Shown: positions 6,714 to 59,417, counted from the stretch's first letter. The stretch: 64,000 nt of DNA from Candidatus Nomurabacteria bacterium (GCA_023267215.1 JAHFNS010000002.1:128892-192891); one strand, 5' to 3'. Numbers and translations are program-made. The notes: generated by a model from the sequence alone, not told the origin.

Positions 6714-9700
6714 TTAATTTTGTAAATATTCTTTATACGACTTAATTTCCAAATCTGAAATCTTGTAATGCCCAAGAGCTTTGATAAAAGCCCTAGCTAA
6801 ATGCAAATCAGTAAATAATGGAATCTGATTATCTACTGTGGCTCTCCTTATACGGAATCCATCTGTAATACTATTTAATTTAATCTTACTCTCCAATTTG
6901 TTTTTACTCAAATTCACCACAAAGGCTACCTTCTTACTTATGATAATATCAAGAGCATTTGGGGATTGCTCAAAAGCTTTCCGCACAACCATGCAATCTA
7001 TATTGTGACTTTTTAAAAATTCTGCAGTTGTATCAGTAGCAAAAATTTTATAACCAATATTTATTAATGTATTAACCGCTTCTAAAAATTTAGCTTTATT
7101 GAGACTTCCCCCTAAAGAAAGAAGGACAGTTTTTTTATCAACATCAAACTTATTAGTACTAAAAATTGATTTTAATAACGCTTCATCATAATCTTTACCG
7201 AAACAAGCCACTTCCCCAGTAGAAGACATTTCTACTCTTAACACTGGATCAGCACCAAGCAATCGAGCAAAAGAAAATTGTGGTGATTTCACAATTACAT
7301 TTTTGGGATATATAAATTTATGTGCCAAAGCTTTGCCAAAAAAAGCATCTACTGCTATTTCAGGAAAATTCGCATCCATCGCTTTGGATAAAAGTGGAAA
7401 AGTACGGCTAGCACGCAAATTGACCTCAATAACAGATGGTCGATTGTCTTTAACTAAAAATTGAATATTAAATGGCCCGGTAATATTAAGTTCTTTAGCA
7501 ATTTTTTGAGAAATTTCTCGTAACTGAAATTCTGTAGAAGCATAAACTCTCTGGGTCGGATACACAATAGTAGCATCACCAGAATGGACACCAGCATTCT
7601 CTACATGTTCGGAAATACCATAAATCATAATCTGACCTCCTTGTGCTACTGCATCAAATTCAAGTTCTTTGGCATTTTCTATGTATTGTGAAATAGTAAT
7701 AGGATATTCCCCACTTAATACTACGGCTTTACTTACAAAATTCCGCAATTCATTTTTGTTATAACATACACTCATTGCAGAACCAGAGAGAACATACGAT
7801 GGACGTACTAAAACTGGGAAACCTTCAATCTCTATAAATTTCAAAGCTTTTTGCATGTTAGTGAAACTCTGCCATTTAGGTTGTGTAATGTTTAATTTAT
7901 CTAAAAGAGCAGAAAATAAATTTCGATCTTCGGCTCGATCAATATCAGAAGCACTGGTACCTAAAATGTGAAATCCCTCGGTAGAAAGTTTCTTAGCTAG
8001 ATTATTAGGACGTTGACCACCGACAGATATTATAAGTCCATACGCACATTCGAATTCAAAAATATCAGCTACGGTTTCAAAAGACAAATTCTCAAAATAA
8101 AGACGATCTGACATATCATAATCAGTAGAAACAGTTTCTGGGTTACAATTTATAATAATAGACTTTTTTTTGTGTCTTTTAAGCGCCATAGCCGTATAAA
8201 CACAAGACCAGTCAAATTCAACACTTGAACCAATATGATAGGGGCCACTACCAAGTACTGCAATCGCTTTATCTCCTAGTGGTAATACATCGTTATGATT
8301 ACCATGATATGTCAGATACAAATAATTCGTCTTGGAAGGCACTTCCCCAGCAAGAGTATCAATAGCAAATATGCTTGGTTTAATACCAAAACTTTTTCTT
8401 AATTTACGAATTTGAAATTCTGTCTTTCCACAGAGTATGCCAATTTTCTTATCAGAAAAACCAGTCTGTTTTAATTCAAGCATTTCTTCTTTTTTTATTT
8501 CTTTTTTTTGTTTATGAGTCTTTAACAATTCTTTTTCTACTCGTACAATATTCTCTAATCTAGACAAAAACCAAGGGTTTACACCTGTTATGTTGTAGAG
8601 ATTTTTTACTGTCATCCCCTTCATTAATCCAGCTGTCAAAGCAAAAAGACGTTTTGGTGTAGGAATAGTTAAAAATTTTTTTAATTCTTTTTCATCTTTA
8701 AATCCATTATCAGTCACACCTTCTATGAGACCTGATTGCATGCGTACTGCTTTCTGTAAAGCTTCTTCAAAACTCCTACCAATAGCCATAACTTCCCCCA
8801 CTGATTTCATAGCACTAGTGATTTGTTCTTCTGCGCCTTTAAATTTTTCCAAATCCCATCTCGGCATTTTAATAGCTACATAATCAAGGGCAGGTTCAAA
8901 AAAACTTTGCGTTACTTTTGTAATTTTATTTTTTATTTCAATTAAACTTTTACCCAAAGCAAGTTTAGCTGCCACATAAGCAAGCGGATAACCAGTCGCT
9001 TTCGATGCAAGTGCACTAGAACGAGAAAGACGTGCGTTAACTTCAATAACAAAATAATCTACTTTCCCATCCACAGTAGAAGCAGATGGATTAAGAGCAA
9101 ATTGTACGTTACATTCGCCAACTATCTTGAGACTTTGCACAATTTTTATACTTGCTTCTCTTAAACTATAATACTCTCGATTTGATAATGTTTGACTAGG
9201 TGCAATAACTATAGAATCACCTGTATGAATACCCAATGGGTCAAAATTTTCCATATTACATACGGTTACTATATTATTAAATTCATCTCTAACGACTTCA
9301 TATTCTATTTCTTTAAAGAAATGCAAATATTTTTCTATTAGGACTTGTGGACTTATCGCAAGAGCTCCCTCAACAATTTCTTCCAATTCTTTTTCATTTG
9401 TAGCTACTCCAGATTTCTGTCCACCCAAGGCAAAAGCTGCACGAATCATAAGTGGAAAACCTATTTCTTTTGCAATTTTTTGTGCTCCTTTTAGATTAAC
9501 AGCTGAACCGGAAGGTGGAATGGGAATATCAATACTTTTTAAATGATCAGCAAAAAGTTGCCGATCTTCTGTGAGTTTAATAGATTCTGTGGAAGTTCCT
9601 AAAACTTTTATATTATATTTCTTAAATACACCTTTTGCTTCTAAGTTCAAACCGCAATTGAGTGCAGTCTGTCCACCAAATGAAAGCATAATACCATCTG

Positions 9701-9944
9701 GTTTTTCTTTGGCTATAACTTTTTCCACAAAGTAATCATTAATCGGCAAGAAATAAACTTCATCTGCTAAAGATTTTGATGTCTGAAAAGTGGCAATATT
9801 TGGATTTACTAAAATAACTTTTATTTTTTCTTCCTTCAAGGCTTTTATCGCCTGACTACCGCTATAATCAAATTCACCTGCTTCACCTATTTTTAACGCG
9901 CCAGATCCCAACACTAATATTTTTTTAAATTTTTTCTTATTCAT
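6714..9944 (-). CDS. carB: Carbamoyl-phosphate synthase large subunit
   Basis: 1076 aa with duplicated ATP-grasp halves and an MGS-like C-terminal domain; overlaps the carA stop by 4 nt. Confidence 0.95.
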   Translation of the reverse strand: MNKKKFKKILVLGSGALKIGEAGEFDYSGSQAIKALKEEKIKVILVNPNIATFQTSKSLADEVYFLPINDYFVEKVIAKEKPDGIMLSFGGQTALNCGLNLEAKGVFKKYNIKVLGTSTESIKLTEDRQLFADHLKSIDIPIPPSGSAVNLKGAQKIAKEIGFPLMIRAAFALGGQKSGVATNEKELEEIVEGALAISPQVLIEKYLHFFKEIEYEVVRDEFNNIVTVCNMENFDPLGIHTGDSIVIAPSQTLSNREYYSLREASIKIVQSLKIVGECNVQFALNPSASTVDGKVDYFVIEVNARLSRSSALASKATGYPLAYVAAKLALGKSLIEIKNKITKVTQSFFEPALDYVAIKMPRWDLEKFKGAEEQITSAMKSVGEVMAIGRSFEEALQKAVRMQSGLIEGVTDNGFKDEKELKKFLTIPTPKRLFALTAGLMKGMTVKNLYNITGVNPWFLSRLENIVRVEKELLKTHKQKKEIKKEEMLELKQTGFSDKKIGILCGKTEFQIRKLRKSFGIKPSIFAIDTLAGEVPSKTNYLYLTYHGNHNDVLPLGDKAIAVLGSGPYHIGSSVEFDWSCVYTAMALKRHKKKSIIINCNPETVSTDYDMSDRLYFENLSFETVADIFEFECAYGLIISVGGQRPNNLAKKLSTEGFHILGTSASDIDRAEDRNLFSALLDKLNITQPKWQSFTNMQKALKFIEIEGFPVLVRPSYVLSGSAMSVCYNKNELRNFVSKAVVLSGEYPITISQYIENAKELEFDAVAQGGQIMIYGISEHVENAGVHSGDATIVYPTQRVYASTEFQLREISQKIAKELNITGPFNIQFLVKDNRPSVIEVNLRASRTFPLLSKAMDANFPEIAVDAFFGKALAHKFIYPKNVIVKSPQFSFARLLGADPVLRVEMSSTGEVACFGKDYDEALLKSIFSTNKFDVDKKTVLLSLGGSLNKAKFLEAVNTLINIGYKIFATDTTAEFLKSHNIDCMVVRKAFEQSPNALDIIISKKVAFVVNLSKNKLESKIKLNSITDGFRIRRATVDNQIPLFTDLHLARAFIKALGHYKISDLEIKSYKEYLQN

Positions 9945-54728: not shown

Positions 54729-54767
54729 TCACCTCACCCCTACCCCTCTCCTTAATAAGGAGAGGGG
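54729..54767. repeat. Palindromic repeat element copy C (intergenic)
   Basis: TCACCTCACCCCTACCCCTCTCCTTAATAAGGAGAGGGG, immediately after the 54280 gene stop. Confidence 0.65.
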
Positions 54768-54906
54768 TTTTGTCTTCTGTAATAATTTTATTTTTAACAC
54801 GTCAACACTAAAGGATGATAGTCCATACCTTGACTTTATTGGTAAAGGTGATATACTACAAGTTAACAAATCTGTACAAAAATTGAAAACTAAATAGAGG
54901 TATAAA

Positions 54907-55641
54907 GTGAAAAAAATAATTATTTTTCTTGTTGTCCTATTGGGGACAACTTTAGCCCAAAAAGAATCACTGGAAACAAAAATGTTTTTCCCAACGAGAG
55001 AAGCAGCGGAAAAAGCATTTTATTCGGGTGATTTCCGATATTATTTATCGGACCCTAAAAACATAAAAAGCTATCCACCATTTTCTGCAAAAGGTCTTCC
55101 AAGATCTTATGTAGTTCTGGAGGTTGTTAGAGAAAATTCTGGAAAGTCGCCTGCATGGGTATTACTCGCCCCAGGTACACCATCAGTATTTAATTTCCAC
55201 GGAGTACCAATTCAAGATGGACGGTGTTGGAATAAAATTCTTGAAGCTTATCCCGTTCTACTTAATGGACGAGATGGTAAGGACGGAATTAATGGAAAAG
55301 ATGGACAAAATGGTAAAGATGGACCTCCTGGGAAAGATGGAGAAATAGTAATCATTCCATCAGAAGACAATACTCCTTCCAACTGGACAATTTGGAAAAC
55401 TCTTACCACTGGAGGAGCAGGAATTGGAGGATATTTTATTGGTCATAATAATTTTAAAAAAACGATCACTAATATAACAAGAATTCCACCGGTCGCAGTA
55501 CAAACCGGCAACGGGACAATAATCTATGGTCCTGAACGTGTAAATGTTAGTACTAGTAATGAATTTAATGAACCTATAGCAATAATGTGTGGTTTATTAA
55601 GTGCAGGAGTTACTTTCCTGCTAAATTGGTTCGTGTTTTAA
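54907..55641 (+). CDS. Collagen-like (GXY)9 repeat protein with signal peptide and C-terminal hydrophobic anchor
   Basis: GRDGKDGINGKDGQNGKDGPPGKDGE run of GXY triplets. N-terminal signal peptide; C-terminal TM. Confidence 0.6.
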   Translation: MKKIIIFLVVLLGTTLAQKESLETKMFFPTREAAEKAFYSGDFRYYLSDPKNIKSYPPFSAKGLPRSYVVLEVVRENSGKSPAWVLLAPGTPSVFNFHGVPIQDGRCWNKILEAYPVLLNGRDGKDGINGKDGQNGKDGPPGKDGEIVIIPSEDNTPSNWTIWKTLTTGGAGIGGYFIGHNNFKKTITNITRIPPVAVQTGNGTIIYGPERVNVSTSNEFNEPIAIMCGLLSAGVTFLLNWFVF

Positions 55642-55777
55642 ATCATTTAGTGTGGAGGTTTTATTCTTTTTTAAGATTAACTCTTCCACAGCTTTTCAAA
55701 GTTATTGATATTTTTAGATAAATGTGGATAATTTTGAAGAGCTAAAAAACTCTTTTAAAATAGTAATAATAAAAATT

Positions 55778-58759
55778 ATGAATAAAAAAATAAAACTGAC
55801 AATATTAGGTATCTTAACTCTCGTTGGGCTTTTTACTAGTATAAATATAACTTCTGCTGGTAGAACTCCAATAGTTACTTGCAACAGTGCTACTATTTAT
55901 GGAACTGTCTGGCCAAACAATACTACAGTGAGTGCTTGGTTTGAATGGGGAAATAACATATCAACAGTTCAAAATGGAGGTGGAACTAAAATTGGATTTC
56001 AACAAGTTAATAATACCACTGAACTCAGTGCAAATTTGTCAGGACTAAATCAAAATACAACTTATTATTACAGATTGGTTGTTCAAAGTGGTAGTGATTA
56101 CATTCCTGCCACAACCGAATCCTTTTCTACTACTACTTGCCAAATTGTAAACCCTCCCGTCAATGGTGGCTGGAGTGACTGGAGTTCAAAAGATAATTCT
56201 TGTGGTGTTTCCGGAGTTCAAACTCGCTCTTGTACAAACCCTACTCCAGCTAATGGTGGAGCATATTGTTCCGGTCCTTCTACTCAAACATATACAAATC
56301 CACAATGTCCTATTATAAATACTCCCGTCAATGGAGGATGGAGTGACTGGAGTTCAAAAGATAATTCCTGTGGTATTTCCGGAGTTCAAACTCGTAGTTG
56401 TAATAACCCAACTCCAGCTTACGGAGGAGCATATTGCTCAGGCCCTTCTTATCAATCATATACAAATCCAGTATGTCCTAATTTAATTTTACCTCCTGTT
56501 GTTTCATTAACAGCAACTCCGACATCAGTATCTTACGGTGGTTCTTCTACTTTATCTTGGAACTCAACAAACAATCCATCATGTATCGCCAATGGTGGTT
56601 GGTCAGGGCAAAAAGCAATGAGGGGCAATGAGTCAACTGGCGCTTTGAATTTCAATACTACTTATAATATTACATGTACAAACAGTGCAGGCTCAGACAG
56701 TAAATCAGTCACAGTGAGTGTTTTACAACAACCGGTTATTCAAAATCCAAGTGGAACAATCTATGCCTCTTCTTGTTTTATACAACTTAATCAATCTACT
56801 TGTGAATCAAAAGTTTCTTGGAATACTTATAATTTAACTCCCGGAGCCTTGACAGCTGTCACCAGAAGCAATCCACCCGTAACAGTATTTACCACGACAT
56901 CCGGAAATAATTTAAGTGATTATATAAATTATGGAAACAGTATTTATTTCTTATATCACAATCAGCAACAGTTGGCATCCGCCCCAGTAAATGCCTCTTG
57001 TGTCTCTGGCACTACTTATATTGGAGGTATTTGTATAGCTCCTGTTGTAAATTATCCTGTAAATGGTGGTTGGGGACCTTGGAGTTCTAAAGATAATTCT
57101 TGTGGAGCGTCTGGAATCCAAATCCGTAGTTGTAATAATCCTAGCCCAGCAAATGGTGGACTAGATTGTTCTGGTTTATCTTCTCAATCATATACAAATC
57201 CGGCTTGTCCTATTACCCAAACTCCCGTCAACGGTGGTTGGGGAGCTTGGAGTTCTAAAGATAATTCTTGTGGTATTTCCGGAGTTCAAACTCGTAGTTG
57301 TAATAATCCTTATCCAGCAAATGGCGGACTAGATTGTTTAGGTACCTCTTCTCGAACTTATACAAATCCACAATGCCCTATCACTCAAACTCCCGTAAAC
57401 GGTGGTTGGGGAGCTTGGAGTACAAAAGATAATTCTTGTGGAGCTTCTGGGATTCAAACTCGTAGTTGTAATAATCCTAGTCCATCAAATGGTGGGCTAG
57501 ATTGTTCAGGAGCTTCTACTCAAACATACGTAAATCCTCAATGTTCTTATCCTGTTTACACTTGCCAAGATTATTCCGCTACAAATTATGGAGGTTCTTT
57601 ACCTTGTAATTATTATCAAGCTCCTTTAGTTTGCCAAGATCCAAGTGCTACCAACTACAGAGGTGGTTTACCTTGTAATTATTACAATAATTATATTCAA
57701 ACCTGCCAGGATCCTTCTGCAACAAATTATCGTGGGACATTGCCTTGTAATTATTATTACCAACCTATTTTAACTTGCCAAGATCCTTCTGCCTTAAATT
57801 ACAGAGGAACACTTCCTTGCACGTATAATACATATATTAACAATAAACCAACTGTAAATATTTCTACAGATCAAAGTACTGTATCCTTTAATGGAACTAC
57901 TTTTGTTCGTTGGTATACAACCAATGCAACCTCTTGTTATGCAAGTGATGGATCTATCGGTTGGGCAGGAGCAAAAAGCATTGGACCAGGAAGTTTTTAC
58001 ACAGGATCATTAACTTCTGGTAAAACTTACACTATTACTTGTACAAACAGTTTTGGGTCTGCGACTGATAGCACAAATGTATCTGTTCGTTCTCAAACCA
58101 CAACAACAATCACAACCAGACGTGCTCCAACTTCTCTCGTACTTATTACCTCTTCTGTAGATCGTAATCAACCAATAGTGCCTACCATAGACAATACTAG
58201 ACCAAAACCAGGAGATGAAATCAATTACACCGTAAATTATCAAAATATCGGCACAGGATCTATCACTAGTCTCAATCTAAGAGTAGACCTCCCTTACGAA
58301 GTAAATTACATATTGTCTAATCCAAACAATCCAACCATTTCTGGTAATACTTTAATTTTCAATTTAGGAACCCTAAAAGCAAACGGACAAGGCACGGTGA
58401 CAATAAGAGTGCGAGTACGAGAAAACATACCAGCCGGAACAAATTTAAATTTCCCTGCTACTTTGAGTTATGTTGACCCAGGAGGTCAACCACAATCAGT
58501 AATGGCTAATGTCTCTGCTCAAGTTTGGAGTGAACCACCAATAACACAACTGGTAAATCCAAACGACAAAGAAACAGTACAATTAGGAGCACTCGCTTTC
58601 CTGTTTGGTAACAGTTTTGTTCCAAGCACACTAATAGGATGGCTTCTTATTATTCTATTAATTACTCTGGTTGTTTTAGCCGTAAGAAAAGCGTACTACG
58701 GACCAAATGCAATTTTTGTTCCACAAACTTTAGAAAAAAGTAAAAAAATAAATGGATAA
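55778..58759 (+). CDS. Large surface protein with 5 thrombospondin type-1-like repeats, Cys-rich 24-aa repeats, Ig-like domains, a DUF11-like domain and a C-terminal TM anchor
   Basis: Five repeats of VNGGW(S/G)xWSSKDNSCG.SG.QTRSCNNP.PANGG..CSG.S.Q.YTNP.CP (WSxWS and CS.TCG-like core). Four repeats of CQDPSATNYRG.LPCNYY. DUF11-like segment (INYTVNYQNIGTGS...GTVTIRVRV). The start is probably the Met at 55778. Confidence 0.7.
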   Translation: MNKKIKLTILGILTLVGLFTSINITSAGRTPIVTCNSATIYGTVWPNNTTVSAWFEWGNNISTVQNGGGTKIGFQQVNNTTELSANLSGLNQNTTYYYRLVVQSGSDYIPATTESFSTTTCQIVNPPVNGGWSDWSSKDNSCGVSGVQTRSCTNPTPANGGAYCSGPSTQTYTNPQCPIINTPVNGGWSDWSSKDNSCGISGVQTRSCNNPTPAYGGAYCSGPSYQSYTNPVCPNLILPPVVSLTATPTSVSYGGSSTLSWNSTNNPSCIANGGWSGQKAMRGNESTGALNFNTTYNITCTNSAGSDSKSVTVSVLQQPVIQNPSGTIYASSCFIQLNQSTCESKVSWNTYNLTPGALTAVTRSNPPVTVFTTTSGNNLSDYINYGNSIYFLYHNQQQLASAPVNASCVSGTTYIGGICIAPVVNYPVNGGWGPWSSKDNSCGASGIQIRSCNNPSPANGGLDCSGLSSQSYTNPACPITQTPVNGGWGAWSSKDNSCGISGVQTRSCNNPYPANGGLDCLGTSSRTYTNPQCPITQTPVNGGWGAWSTKDNSCGASGIQTRSCNNPSPSNGGLDCSGASTQTYVNPQCSYPVYTCQDYSATNYGGSLPCNYYQAPLVCQDPSATNYRGGLPCNYYNNYIQTCQDPSATNYRGTLPCNYYYQPILTCQDPSALNYRGTLPCTYNTYINNKPTVNISTDQSTVSFNGTTFVRWYTTNATSCYASDGSIGWAGAKSIGPGSFYTGSLTSGKTYTITCTNSFGSATDSTNVSVRSQTTTTITTRRAPTSLVLITSSVDRNQPIVPTIDNTRPKPGDEINYTVNYQNIGTGSITSLNLRVDLPYEVNYILSNPNNPTISGNTLIFNLGTLKANGQGTVTIRVRVRENIPAGTNLNFPATLSYVDPGGQPQSVMANVSAQVWSEPPITQLVNPNDKETVQLGALAFLFGNSFVPSTLIGWLLIILLITLVVLAVRKAYYGPNAIFVPQTLEKSKKING

Positions 58760-59417
58760 AGTTAGTATACGGATAAATAAATATTTAGCTTTAAAAAAAA
58801 TCTCCACAAGAAAAGGGGCTGATGAACTAGTGAAAAAAAAGAAAGTTTTTATAAATGGTAAATTGGCCGTACTTGGTAGTCAAGTAAATGAAAACGATAA
58901 AGTAGAAGTAAAAGGTGTAGAAAAAAAAGAATATCTTTACTTCGCCTATAATAAACCAACAGATGTGGAAACAAATTCTCCTAAAAAAGACCTCTTCCCT
59001 TTAGGGAGACTGGATAAAAATTCGCATGGACTCATAATTCTTACTAATGATGGAAGAATTACAGATCAACTATTAAATCCAAAGTTTTCTCATGAAAAAG
59101 AATATTTAGTAAAAACAAAAGAAAAATTACGCTCAAGTTTTAAACAAAAAATGGAAGCTGGGGTTAATATTGAAGGATATGTCACTAAAAAATGTGCTGT
59201 AAAAATAATAAATGAAAATACTTTTAAAGTGATATTAACTGAAGGAAAAAAACATCAAATCAGGAGAATGTGCGCAAATCTTTTCCAAGAAGTGGCTGAC
59301 CTAAAAAGAGAAAGAATTATGAATATTAAACTCGGAAGCCTCAAATCGGGGGCTTTTAGAGAGATAAAAGGTGAAGAATTAGTGGTATTCCTAGATAAAG
59401 TGCTTAAACAAGCTTAA
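58752..59417 (+). CDS. Pseudouridine synthase, RsuA/RluB family (S4 domain + catalytic domain)
   Basis: An S4-like N-terminal (INKYLA...) and an RLDKNSHGLIILTNDG catalytic Asp motif. Confidence 0.8.
   Translation: MDKVSIRINKYLALKKISTRKGADELVKKKKVFINGKLAVLGSQVNENDKVEVKGVEKKEYLYFAYNKPTDVETNSPKKDLFPLGRLDKNSHGLIILTNDGRITDQLLNPKFSHEKEYLVKTKEKLRSSFKQKMEAGVNIEGYVTKKCAVKIINENTFKVILTEGKKHQIRRMCANLFQEVADLKRERIMNIKLGSLKSGAFREIKGEELVVFLDKVLKQA

Follow-up and report, generated by a model that had tools for sequence, protein, structure and literature searches.

A putative fibrillar adhesin with thrombospondin type-1 repeats of a four-cysteine type in a Paceibacteria bacterium

Thrombospondin type-1 repeats (TSRs; Pfam TSP_1, PF00090) were predicted in a surface protein encoded on a 64,000-nucleotide stretch of DNA from a Candidatus Nomurabacteria bacterium (GCA_023267215.1, JAHFNS010000002.1:128892-192891; hereafter the window). 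Are these repeats genuine, and what might a bacterium use them for? The gene extends from the ATG at 55778 to 58759, stop codon counted in, on the + strand (as do all features below unless stated otherwise). It is a single open reading frame (ORF) with the limits given in the original prediction, for a product of 993 amino acids; "giant" is not the word for a protein that is large only. An identical protein (P0001, 100%) has been called on a 99.7-kb metagenome contig in ENA. An in-frame GTG upstream, at 55724, would add 18 residues; the N-termini of homologs (MNKKIKL/MKKIK) fit the ATG at 55778. From N- to C-terminus, the protein consists of a signal peptide, an FN3-like domain, two TSRs, an Ig-like domain, a further beta-sandwich, three TSRs, four CxDxxAxNY mini-repeats, a second Ig-like domain, a CLIPPER/DUF11 domain and a transmembrane helix, and the chain thus contains 14 small modules that are beta-rich or disulfide-closed. 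We consider it probable that the protein is a fibrillar adhesin, tens of nanometers long, which binds a partner cell or polymer through its TSRs, mini-repeats and tip, and whose specificity is tuned by module shuffling.

Type-1 repeats with four cysteines

The Pfam TSP_1 profile matched the protein in five stretches (47.1 bits against a gathering cutoff of 21.6, E 2.7e-12). A phmmer search of all Protein Data Bank (PDB) sequences returned TSR2-3 of human thrombospondin-1 first (3r6b, E 8e-15); the further matches, all through the TSRs, were to UNC5, properdin, complement C8/C7 and ADAMTS13/5. For the first two units, an AlphaFold2 model computed from a 25-row alignment of tandem units reached a mean predicted local distance difference test (pLDDT) score of 92.5, with two short beta-strands per unit. 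When this model was compared with the PDB by Foldseek, all 12 matches at E <= 0.001 were TSR structures, headed by 7yyk, 3r6b and 1lsl (thrombospondin-1; 38-39% identity, E 1e-7) and followed by properdin, C6/C8, ADAMTS13 and UNC5. Two-domain TM-scores were low (0.32-0.41, root-mean-square deviation about 9 A), which we attribute to the angles between repeats because single domains deviated by only about 3 A over 54-59 columns. Profile, PDB similarity and predicted fold bear out the earlier claim of TSP1-like repeats in a bacterium, for which structure prediction had been proposed as a check. Taken together, sequence and model indicate that the five units are true TSRs of a derived four-cysteine type.

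Each unit is exactly 56 amino acids (168 nucleotides) long. TSR1 (56153..56320, aa 126-181) and TSR2 (56321..56488, aa 182-237) form one block at 56153-56488; TSR3 (57053..57220, aa 426-481), TSR4 (57221..57388, aa 482-537) and TSR5 (57389..57556, aa 538-593) form another at 57053-57556. The gap of 564 nucleotides (188 residues) encodes two beta-sandwich domains. TSR1 and TSR2, 85% identical in nucleotides and 82% in amino acids, are identified by profile, PDB similarity and the tandem model with its Foldseek matches. TSR3 lies in the best Pfam stretch (aa 431-470) and aligns to TSR2 of thrombospondin-1 in 3r6b, TSR4 is placed by its tandem array, PDB similarity and unit register, and TSR5 by array and register. 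The motifs GGW[SG]xWS, CGxSGxQ[TI]RSC and NPxPxxGG..C.G and a terminal cysteine are present in all five. The count of five copies of about 55 residues with such motifs was therefore correct in the original prediction, but its picture of a single array at 56150-57540, nearly identical at the nucleotide level and with six cysteines per repeat, is refuted on all three points.

Tandem Repeats Finder reported two arrays of period 168 nucleotides, at 56154-56480 (1.9 copies, 86% matches) and at 57055-57543 (2.9 copies, 82%). Pairwise identity among the five units was 70-85% for nucleotides and 66-82% for amino acids, and the longest exact run common to any two of them was 38 nucleotides. With synonymous divergence (dS) between units at 0.33-1.55 and dN/dS at 0.14-0.37, the TSRs are old duplicates kept by purifying selection. 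Copies this diverged make both assembly collapse and frequent homologous recombination unlikely. The proposal that repeat number may vary by recombination thus holds over evolutionary time, since 1, 1 and 3 TSRs occur at the same position elsewhere, and fails for recombination as a frequent event. In a neighbor-joining tree of units of about 50 residues, drawn without support values and used for grouping within the family and not for domain origin, TSR1 and TSR2 grouped with the first TSR of the homologs P0003 and P0058, while TSR3-5 formed one cluster with WGxW and GGLDC in common. TSR3-5 look like a lineage-specific triplication at the sequence level.

The tryptophan ladder W-x-x-W is found in five of five units (GGWSDWS, GGWGPWS or GGWGAWS), with two tryptophans, not three, and W9 and W12 are invariant across 25 aligned tandem units. 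At the R-x-R position of strand B the units read Q-T-R (Q-I-R in TSR3), so that, compared with RIR, one arginine is kept and the other aligns to glutamine. The cysteines number four per unit (e.g., C142, C152, C164 and C177), instead of the canonical six. Alignments put a lysine at the C1 position, the first cysteine of CSVTCG, and leave a single C-terminal cysteine, which MAFFT placed at C6 in the second repeat and at C5 in the first. Tan et al. in 2002 reportedly found the thrombospondin-1 disulfides to be C1-C5, C2-C6 and C3-C4. The simplest reading of the alignments is that both C1-C5 partners were lost together, which would leave the C2-C6 and C3-C4 disulfides.

Four-cysteine units were the only type in the closest Paceibacteria-like loci (L001-L021), and units with six cysteines were found in the eukaryotic matches and in most other prokaryotic loci. 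Canonical six-cysteine and derived four-cysteine TSRs stand side by side within one Paceibacterota protein, P0112, and another, P0108, has units with two cysteines only. These two sequences suggest a stepwise loss of disulfides within the candidate phyla radiation (CPR).

Export, anchor and the other modules

A Sec-type signal peptide was predicted at aa 1-27 (MNKKIKLTILGILTLVGLFTSINITSA; 55778..55858), with a hydropathy peak at aa 4-27 and a modelled helix at aa 4-17. The segment ends in TSA (family consensus ASA), the presumed cleavage site. The protein contains only one other hydrophobic segment, the C-terminal transmembrane helix at about aa 945-973 (strongest hydropathy at aa 945-970, modelled helix 952-973), which confirms the membrane anchor proposed before. 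Together with a pre-membrane motif (LGALAFLFGNSFVPSTLIGW) it occupies aa 936-973 (58583..58696), as judged by hydropathy, model and family conservation. G937, A938, F947, P949, G954, W955 and L956 are invariant or near-invariant in the family, in which the motif LGA[LN][AV]F-x(3-6)-F[LFV]PxxL[LFI]GWLL enters the transmembrane helix (C-termini of P0002-P0058). After this helix come [RK][KY] and a tail of 15-25 residues, often threonine-rich; here, a short basic cytoplasmic tail (aa 974-993, 58697..58756), a part that varies in the family, follows the stop-transfer residues RK in the sequence. A lineage-specific signal for anchoring or processing is one possible role of the conserved C-terminal motif. 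Sorting signals of the LPXTG or CTERM kind were rejected, as the protein has no LPxT[GAS] motif and NCBIfam CTERM/sorting-signal models did not match at E <= 1.

The ectodomain contains 38 cysteines, always an even number per module, and therefore up to 19 disulfides may form. That many disulfides would imply an extracytoplasmic oxidative folding system in a reduced genome.

At the distal tip, the FN3-like beta-sandwich (aa 30-121, 55865..56140) was modelled with seven strands at a pLDDT of 91-97; its Pfam matches (Pur_ac_phosph_N at 24.1 bits, PhoD_N and fn3) were all below cutoff. The two domains between the TSR blocks are Ig-like beta-sandwich A (aa 240-318, 56495..56731; cysteine pair C269/C300; pLDDT 87-95) and an all-beta "mid" sandwich (aa 326-421, 56753..57040; pLDDT 52-88) with cysteines at 333, 342, 408 and 419. 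Ig-like sandwich B (aa 690-772, 57845..58093; cysteine pair C720/C755; pLDDT 88-96) belongs to one module family with A, with up to 82% identity in homologs. The original prediction had named two Ig-like modules and overlooked the FN3-like domain and the third sandwich (aa 326-421).

Four mini-repeats of 23-24 residues, each with two cysteines, occupy aa 596-684 (57563..57829) and start at aa 596, 619, 643 and 667, confirming the four CQDPSATNYRG-type repeats noted earlier. They follow the general pattern C-Q-D-x-S-A-x-N-Y-x-G-x-L-P-C-x-Y, more narrowly C-Q-D-[PY]-S-A-[TL]-N-Y-[GR]-G-x-L-P-C, and are 65-80% identical to each other in nucleotides. A Pfam scan gave zero matches for the Ig-like domains, the mid sandwich and the mini-repeats, and the mini-repeat region alone had one short match in a set of 5.8 billion proteins. 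Judged by sequence, the CxDxxAxNY mini-repeat is unnamed and known only within the present protein family. The AlphaFold2 model of the full-length protein had a mean pLDDT of 66 and was confident in five regions. Its Foldseek search of the PDB returned generic multi-Ig/FN3 chains only (TM-score about 0.1) and was uninformative beyond a string of beta-sandwiches.

The membrane-proximal module (aa 786-916, 58133..58525) matched Pfam PF01345 at aa 800-887 with 39.4 bits against a cutoff of 24.6, so that the HMM scan upheld the predicted DUF11-like module; TIGR01451 remained just under its cutoff (21.1 bits against 24). Residues 810-915 are all-beta in the model (pLDDT about 90), and the sequence match to 9IFR is weak (E 0.076). 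DUF11 has been renamed CLIPPER, and crystallography has revealed a CnaA-like domain, often with a Lys-Asn isopeptide bond and in some cases without it, that commonly builds the stalks of fibrillar adhesins (PMC12617251). The isopeptide Lys715 of 9IFR aligns with Pro802 of the window protein, and no lysine is conserved at aa 786-806 across 39 family members. In the same 39 sequences, position 837, the putative catalytic aspartate, varies (D in 17, N in 10, T in 5), and Asn891 is conserved. An isopeptide-stabilized CLIPPER domain was rejected for lack of the lysine; from its sequence, the copy most likely belongs to the bond-less subset.

Family, locus and distribution

Module sharing was assessed by per-domain BLAST over the 119 other proteins matched in the similarity search. 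The Ig-like module was the most widely shared (83 of the 119, in 1-12 copies), ahead of the TSR (56, about half of them eukaryotic), CLIPPER (49), the FN3-like tip (44), the mini-repeat (19), the C-terminal tail (14) and the mid sandwich (12, P0112 among them). A separate motif search found the mini-repeat in 27 other proteins, with 1-7 copies each.

Three homologs, P0003 (locus L001), P0058 (L002) and P0005 (L007), occupy the same chromosomal position as the window protein. With F for the FN3-like domain, T for TSR, I for Ig-like, M for the middle sandwich, Q for the mini-repeat block, C for CLIPPER and t for the tail, the window protein reads F-T-T-I-M-T-T-T-Q-I-C-t, P0003 F-T-I-I-M-I-Q-I-I-C-t, P0058 F-T-I-I-F-F-C-t and P0005 F-T-T-I-M-T-I-I-I-I-C-t. 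All have in common the signal peptide, the FN3-like tip, a four-cysteine TSR after the tip and the C-terminal transmembrane motif. The Ig-CLIPPER part is up to 84-88% identical to that of the window protein in P0003 and P0005, whereas the CLIPPER domain of P0058 is only 25% identical. The homologs differ from the window protein in how many middle modules they have, in the order of these modules and in having 1, 1 and 3 TSRs, respectively, instead of 5, and the TSR3-5 block with its WGxW and GGLDC features is found in the window protein only. These sequence comparisons indicate that, at a fixed chromosomal position, the protein retains its ends (the FN3-like tip and the Ig-CLIPPER-transmembrane anchor) and has its middle modules shuffled. 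A surface protein that determines specificity would be expected to show such constant ends and a variable middle.

The locus has a conserved gene order, MacAB, DUF5666, collagen-like gene, adhesin, RluB, S20 and RuvA, which recurs with flanking proteins that are 63-92% identical in the Candidatus Paceibacterota metagenome-assembled genomes (MAGs) L001, L002 and L007; its downstream part is also found in L006, L017, L018 and L020. Because of this synteny and the identity of the flanking genes, the host, an ultrasmall bacterium, is assigned, on sequence grounds, to the Paceibacteria (CPR/Patescibacteria). The record of L007 (JAMPXW010000001.1, a contig of 276,871 bp) is titled Burkholderiales, yet the locus has 33.7% GC and agrees with Paceibacteria in the order of its genes and in its proteins (70-88% identity); either the MAG carries a wrong label or the contig was mis-binned.

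Two overlapping sigma-70-like promoter matches (TTGATA-16-GATAAT and TTGAAG-16-TAAAAT) lie upstream of the gene at 55705..55761. They are weak evidence, as promoter-like sites in the region were not in excess over shuffled sequence (23 vs 20 +/- 4). Downstream, the gene of an RluB-like pseudouridine synthase (58752..59417) overlaps the last codons and stop of the adhesin gene by 8 nucleotides (58752-58759) and is followed by genes for a CspA-like protein, S20, RuvA, an amidase and Fpg. Because of this overlap, and because no terminator was found between the adhesin and RluB-like genes, the adhesin gene appears from the sequence to be co-transcribed with the housekeeping genes for RluB, the CspA-like protein, S20 and RuvA. 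No further TSR or mini-repeat genes were found inside the 64-kb window.

The gene directly upstream of the TSR gene (54907-55641) encodes a protein of 244 amino acids with a signal peptide, a C-terminal hydrophobic helix and about a dozen collagen-like G-X-Y triplets (GRDGKDGINGKDGQNGKDGPPGKDGE; period 36 in Tandem Repeats Finder at 55265-55345). Its Pfam Collagen match was under cutoff (19.9 bits), and a 47%-identical gene is found at the same place in L002. This collagen-like product is a second "extracellular-matrix-like" surface protein adjoining the TSR gene. Further upstream, the segment 50662-54768 encodes a membrane-fusion protein of the HlyD type, two MacB proteins (an ATPase and a permease) and a small secreted protein resembling DUF5666, and it ends in a strong terminator with a 12-bp stem (54742-54768). 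The MacAB set is tripartite-efflux-like, in a CPR bacterium presumed to be without an outer membrane. Elsewhere in the window, a full-length carbamoyl-phosphate synthase large subunit of 1076 aa with strong Pfam matches is encoded on the - strand (6714-9944). Carbamoyl-phosphate synthase is a biosynthetic enzyme, and the CPR group is known for minimal biosynthesis.

In order to find TSRs in other prokaryotes, one genome per GTDB species (185,579 species) was scanned with two peptide patterns derived from the four-cysteine profile, and matches were confirmed by tblastn. This restricted scan confirmed TSRs at 193 places in species-representative prokaryotic genomes. Taxa were counted by record title for the best 80 of the 193 places, a ranking that favors relatives of the query and is no unbiased census. 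About 48 of these 80 belonged to Patescibacteria, and the groups among the matches listed were Paceibacterota, Nomura-, Kaiser-, Moran-, Yanofsky-, Staskawicz-, Magasanik- and Woesebacteria, WWE3 and Minisyncoccia. The others were Gammaproteobacteria (7), Alphaproteobacteria (5, of which 3 Rickettsiales), Planctomycetales (4), Bdellovibrionota (2), Omnitrophota (2), DPANN archaea (2), Thermodesulfovibrionia (1), a Clostridia-type MAG (1) and unclassified records (8). TSP_1 was confirmed by Pfam on a complete 4.5-Mb gammaproteobacterial chromosome (L073, 75 bits, 68% GC) and in L041, which encodes a protein with about seven canonical TSRs. P0058 already bears the NCBI name "thrombospondin type-1 domain-containing protein". 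With several phyla and DPANN archaea among the confirmed places, the view that TSP1 repeats are rare in bacteria is overstated. Within the library that it covered, our literature search found no paper on type-1 repeats in prokaryotes; "thrombospondin" in a CPR/Omnitrophota paper refers to type-3 repeats, and a 2012 review handled TSP1 as an animal domain.

Some of the matches, again with TSP_1 confirmed by Pfam, carry the TSR in other settings. In a Bacteriovoracaceae MAG (L061:5122-6549, on a 1.78-Mb contig) and a gammaproteobacterial MAG (L022:4870-6789), an N-terminal methylation motif (N_methyl) is combined with TSP_1, and TSRs therefore also occur on type-IV-pilin-like proteins. A Pacearchaeota MAG (DPANN; L079:4144-6498) encodes a von Willebrand A domain and a TSP_1 repeat in one protein. 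The pairing of VWA and TSP_1 defines the TRAP-family adhesins of apicomplexans.

Function and comparison with known systems

The window protein has the architecture of a fibrillar adhesin, namely a signal peptide, a stalk of repeated small domains and a surface anchor, which makes the adhesin role suggested in the original prediction plausible. It would be exported by the Sec system and held in the cell membrane by its C-terminal helix, built like beads on a string. From the membrane outward, the predicted order is CLIPPER/DUF11, Ig-like domain, four mini-repeats, three TSRs, two beta-sandwiches, two TSRs and the FN3-like tip. Each TSR would be closed by two disulfides, C2 with the terminal cysteine and C3 with C4. 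In known structures, a TSR measures about 5 nm and a sandwich 3.5-4 nm, and the fibril would project some tens of nanometers from the cell. TSRs, mini-repeats and tip may then grip the surface of a partner cell or polymer. Between related species, the middle changes by duplication, loss and exchange of modules.

Several observations weigh against an adhesin with TSRs as binding modules. Single TSR units match the Pfam profile only faintly, and the cutoff was passed by the summed score; weak single-unit scores are usual for short repeats. The net charge of 0 to +1 per unit and the single ladder arginine mean that the classical heparin/glycosaminoglycan-binding face is not obviously present, and with this basic face missing animal TSRs are no guide to the ligand. 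The CLIPPER domain lacks the isopeptide lysine, the source of mechanical strength in the characterized adhesin stalks. The full-length prediction was of poor quality for TSR4-5 and the mini-repeats (pLDDT 25-38), so that the overall shape of the protein is inferred, not modelled. Finally, the apparent co-transcription with housekeeping genes says nothing on regulation by host contact.

As the main alternative, the protein might be a non-adhesive envelope structure (a coat, a spacer or an S-layer-associated fibril) or a phage decoy, whose middle is shuffled to escape phages or grazers. Rapid variation of the middle at a fixed position is also seen in phage-receptor and antigenic loci, TSRs without a basic binding face and the apparent co-transcription with housekeeping genes would suit such a role, and CLIPPER/DUF11 domains also occur in archaeal S-layer-associated porins and cell-aggregate proteins (PMC12617251). 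The gene is, however, single-copy and its product has a single transmembrane anchor, Pfam and NCBIfam scans returned no self-assembly or S-layer homology domain, and TSR, FN3 and Ig modules are typical of binding or stalk regions. The conservation of the FN3-like tip in more than a third of the matched proteins (44/119) further suggests a conserved interaction, not pure variability. We therefore regard an envelope or decoy role as unlikely, though worth keeping in mind, and prefer an adhesin.

Doubts about the sequence itself carry much less weight. The repeat count (2 + 3 TSRs, four mini-repeats) could be a product of collapse or expansion in a short-read metagenome assembly, where tandem repeats are error-prone, and the protein is on record from one contig only. 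Against this, the units are too diverged (70-85% identity, no shared run above 38 nucleotides), each is exactly 168 nucleotides long with the frame intact, and a T-T ... T layout recurs in the protein that L007 has at this position; we consider an artefact very improbable. Still more improbable is a foreign origin of the TSR region, be it through eukaryotic mis-binning, a chimera or a gene transfer from an animal or protist in the very recent past. TSRs are known above all from eukaryotes, many matches are to cnidarian or mollusc proteins (43-73% identity per unit), and the GC content of 56001-58000 is slightly raised (38.8%, compared with 28-38% in most of the remaining window and 28-39% overall). 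Yet the TSRs lie in frame in an intact ORF, between bacterial-type modules and with a bacterial signal peptide and anchor. In several Paceibacterota MAGs, independent of each other, the same gene with TSRs occupies the syntenic position, on which ground contamination or a chimeric contig was rejected. The four-cysteine type was seen in L001-L021 only while the eukaryotic matches have six cysteines, dS values up to 1.5 between repeats speak for old duplications, and TSP_1 also occurs on the complete gammaproteobacterial chromosome and the 1.8-Mb Bacteriovoracaceae contig.

Partner recognition in CPR bacteria beyond Saccharibacteria is largely unknown, and few candidate attachment proteins have been named. 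The protein is a concrete, well-delimited candidate from a family whose members are anchored at the surface, keep their ends and vary in the order of their middle modules; its gene has a fixed chromosomal position that is easy to find, and research on animals and apicomplexan parasites has taught much about the structure and binding modes of TSRs. The protein adds to the evidence that TSRs are a regular, though infrequent, part of prokaryotic surface proteins, and its simplified two-disulfide TSR could serve folding studies. Pfam and PGAP/NCBI already flag the domain in these genomes, it recurs in many prokaryotic lineages, the modular architecture is standard and no new principle is involved. 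What is new is descriptive, namely the four-cysteine TSR type of the Paceibacteria lineage, the CxDxxAxNY mini-repeat, the family with constant ends and a variable middle at a conserved position, and the finding that prokaryotic TSRs are apparently concentrated in Patescibacteria and otherwise scattered among DPANN archaea and predatory or host-dependent bacteria. A wider and rather doubtful speculation would make the four-cysteine TSR proteins at the conserved position determinants of host or substrate specificity, and TSRs a module for attachment that recurs among ultrasmall episymbionts and predators (CPR bacteria, DPANN archaea, Bdellovibrio-like bacteria and Omnitrophota), carried on membrane anchors, pilin-like proteins and TRAP-like VWA+TSR proteins. 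If true, the TSR domain would not be an animal invention, and parasite-type TSR adhesion would have arisen or spread among prokaryotes.

Among known systems, TSR2-3 of human thrombospondin-1 (1LSL, 3R6B, 7YYK) are 38-39% identical over two repeats and, as judged by the model, have the same elongated fold, in which an irregular strand is combined with two beta-strands. The landmarks W-x-x-W, CG, R-x-C, NPxP and GG-x-x-C are common to both. The repeats of the window protein differ in having four cysteines, not six (C1 replaced by lysine, C5 or C6 absent), a glutamine in place of one ladder arginine, a neutral charge and a bacterial host. Without C1, they do not contain the POFUT2 O-fucosylation consensus C-x-x-S/T-C-x-x-G.

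The fibrillar adhesins with CLIPPER stalks (Costa et al. 2025, PMC12617251; 9IFR) are alike in signal peptide, repeated Ig-like modules, CLIPPER and C-terminal anchor. Unlike them, the window protein has one membrane-proximal CLIPPER domain and not a tandem stalk, lacks the isopeptide lysine and a conserved catalytic aspartate, and is anchored by a transmembrane helix, not by LPXTG or an outer-membrane domain.

The apicomplexan TSR adhesins TRAP/MIC2 and CSP likewise bear TSRs, are membrane-anchored in a single pass and belong to organisms that must attach to another cell. The TSR of CSP has two disulfides only. In contrast to TRAP/MIC2, the window protein lacks a von Willebrand A domain (no VWA match in the Pfam scan), is not linked to a gliding motor and has no rhomboid cleavage site known.

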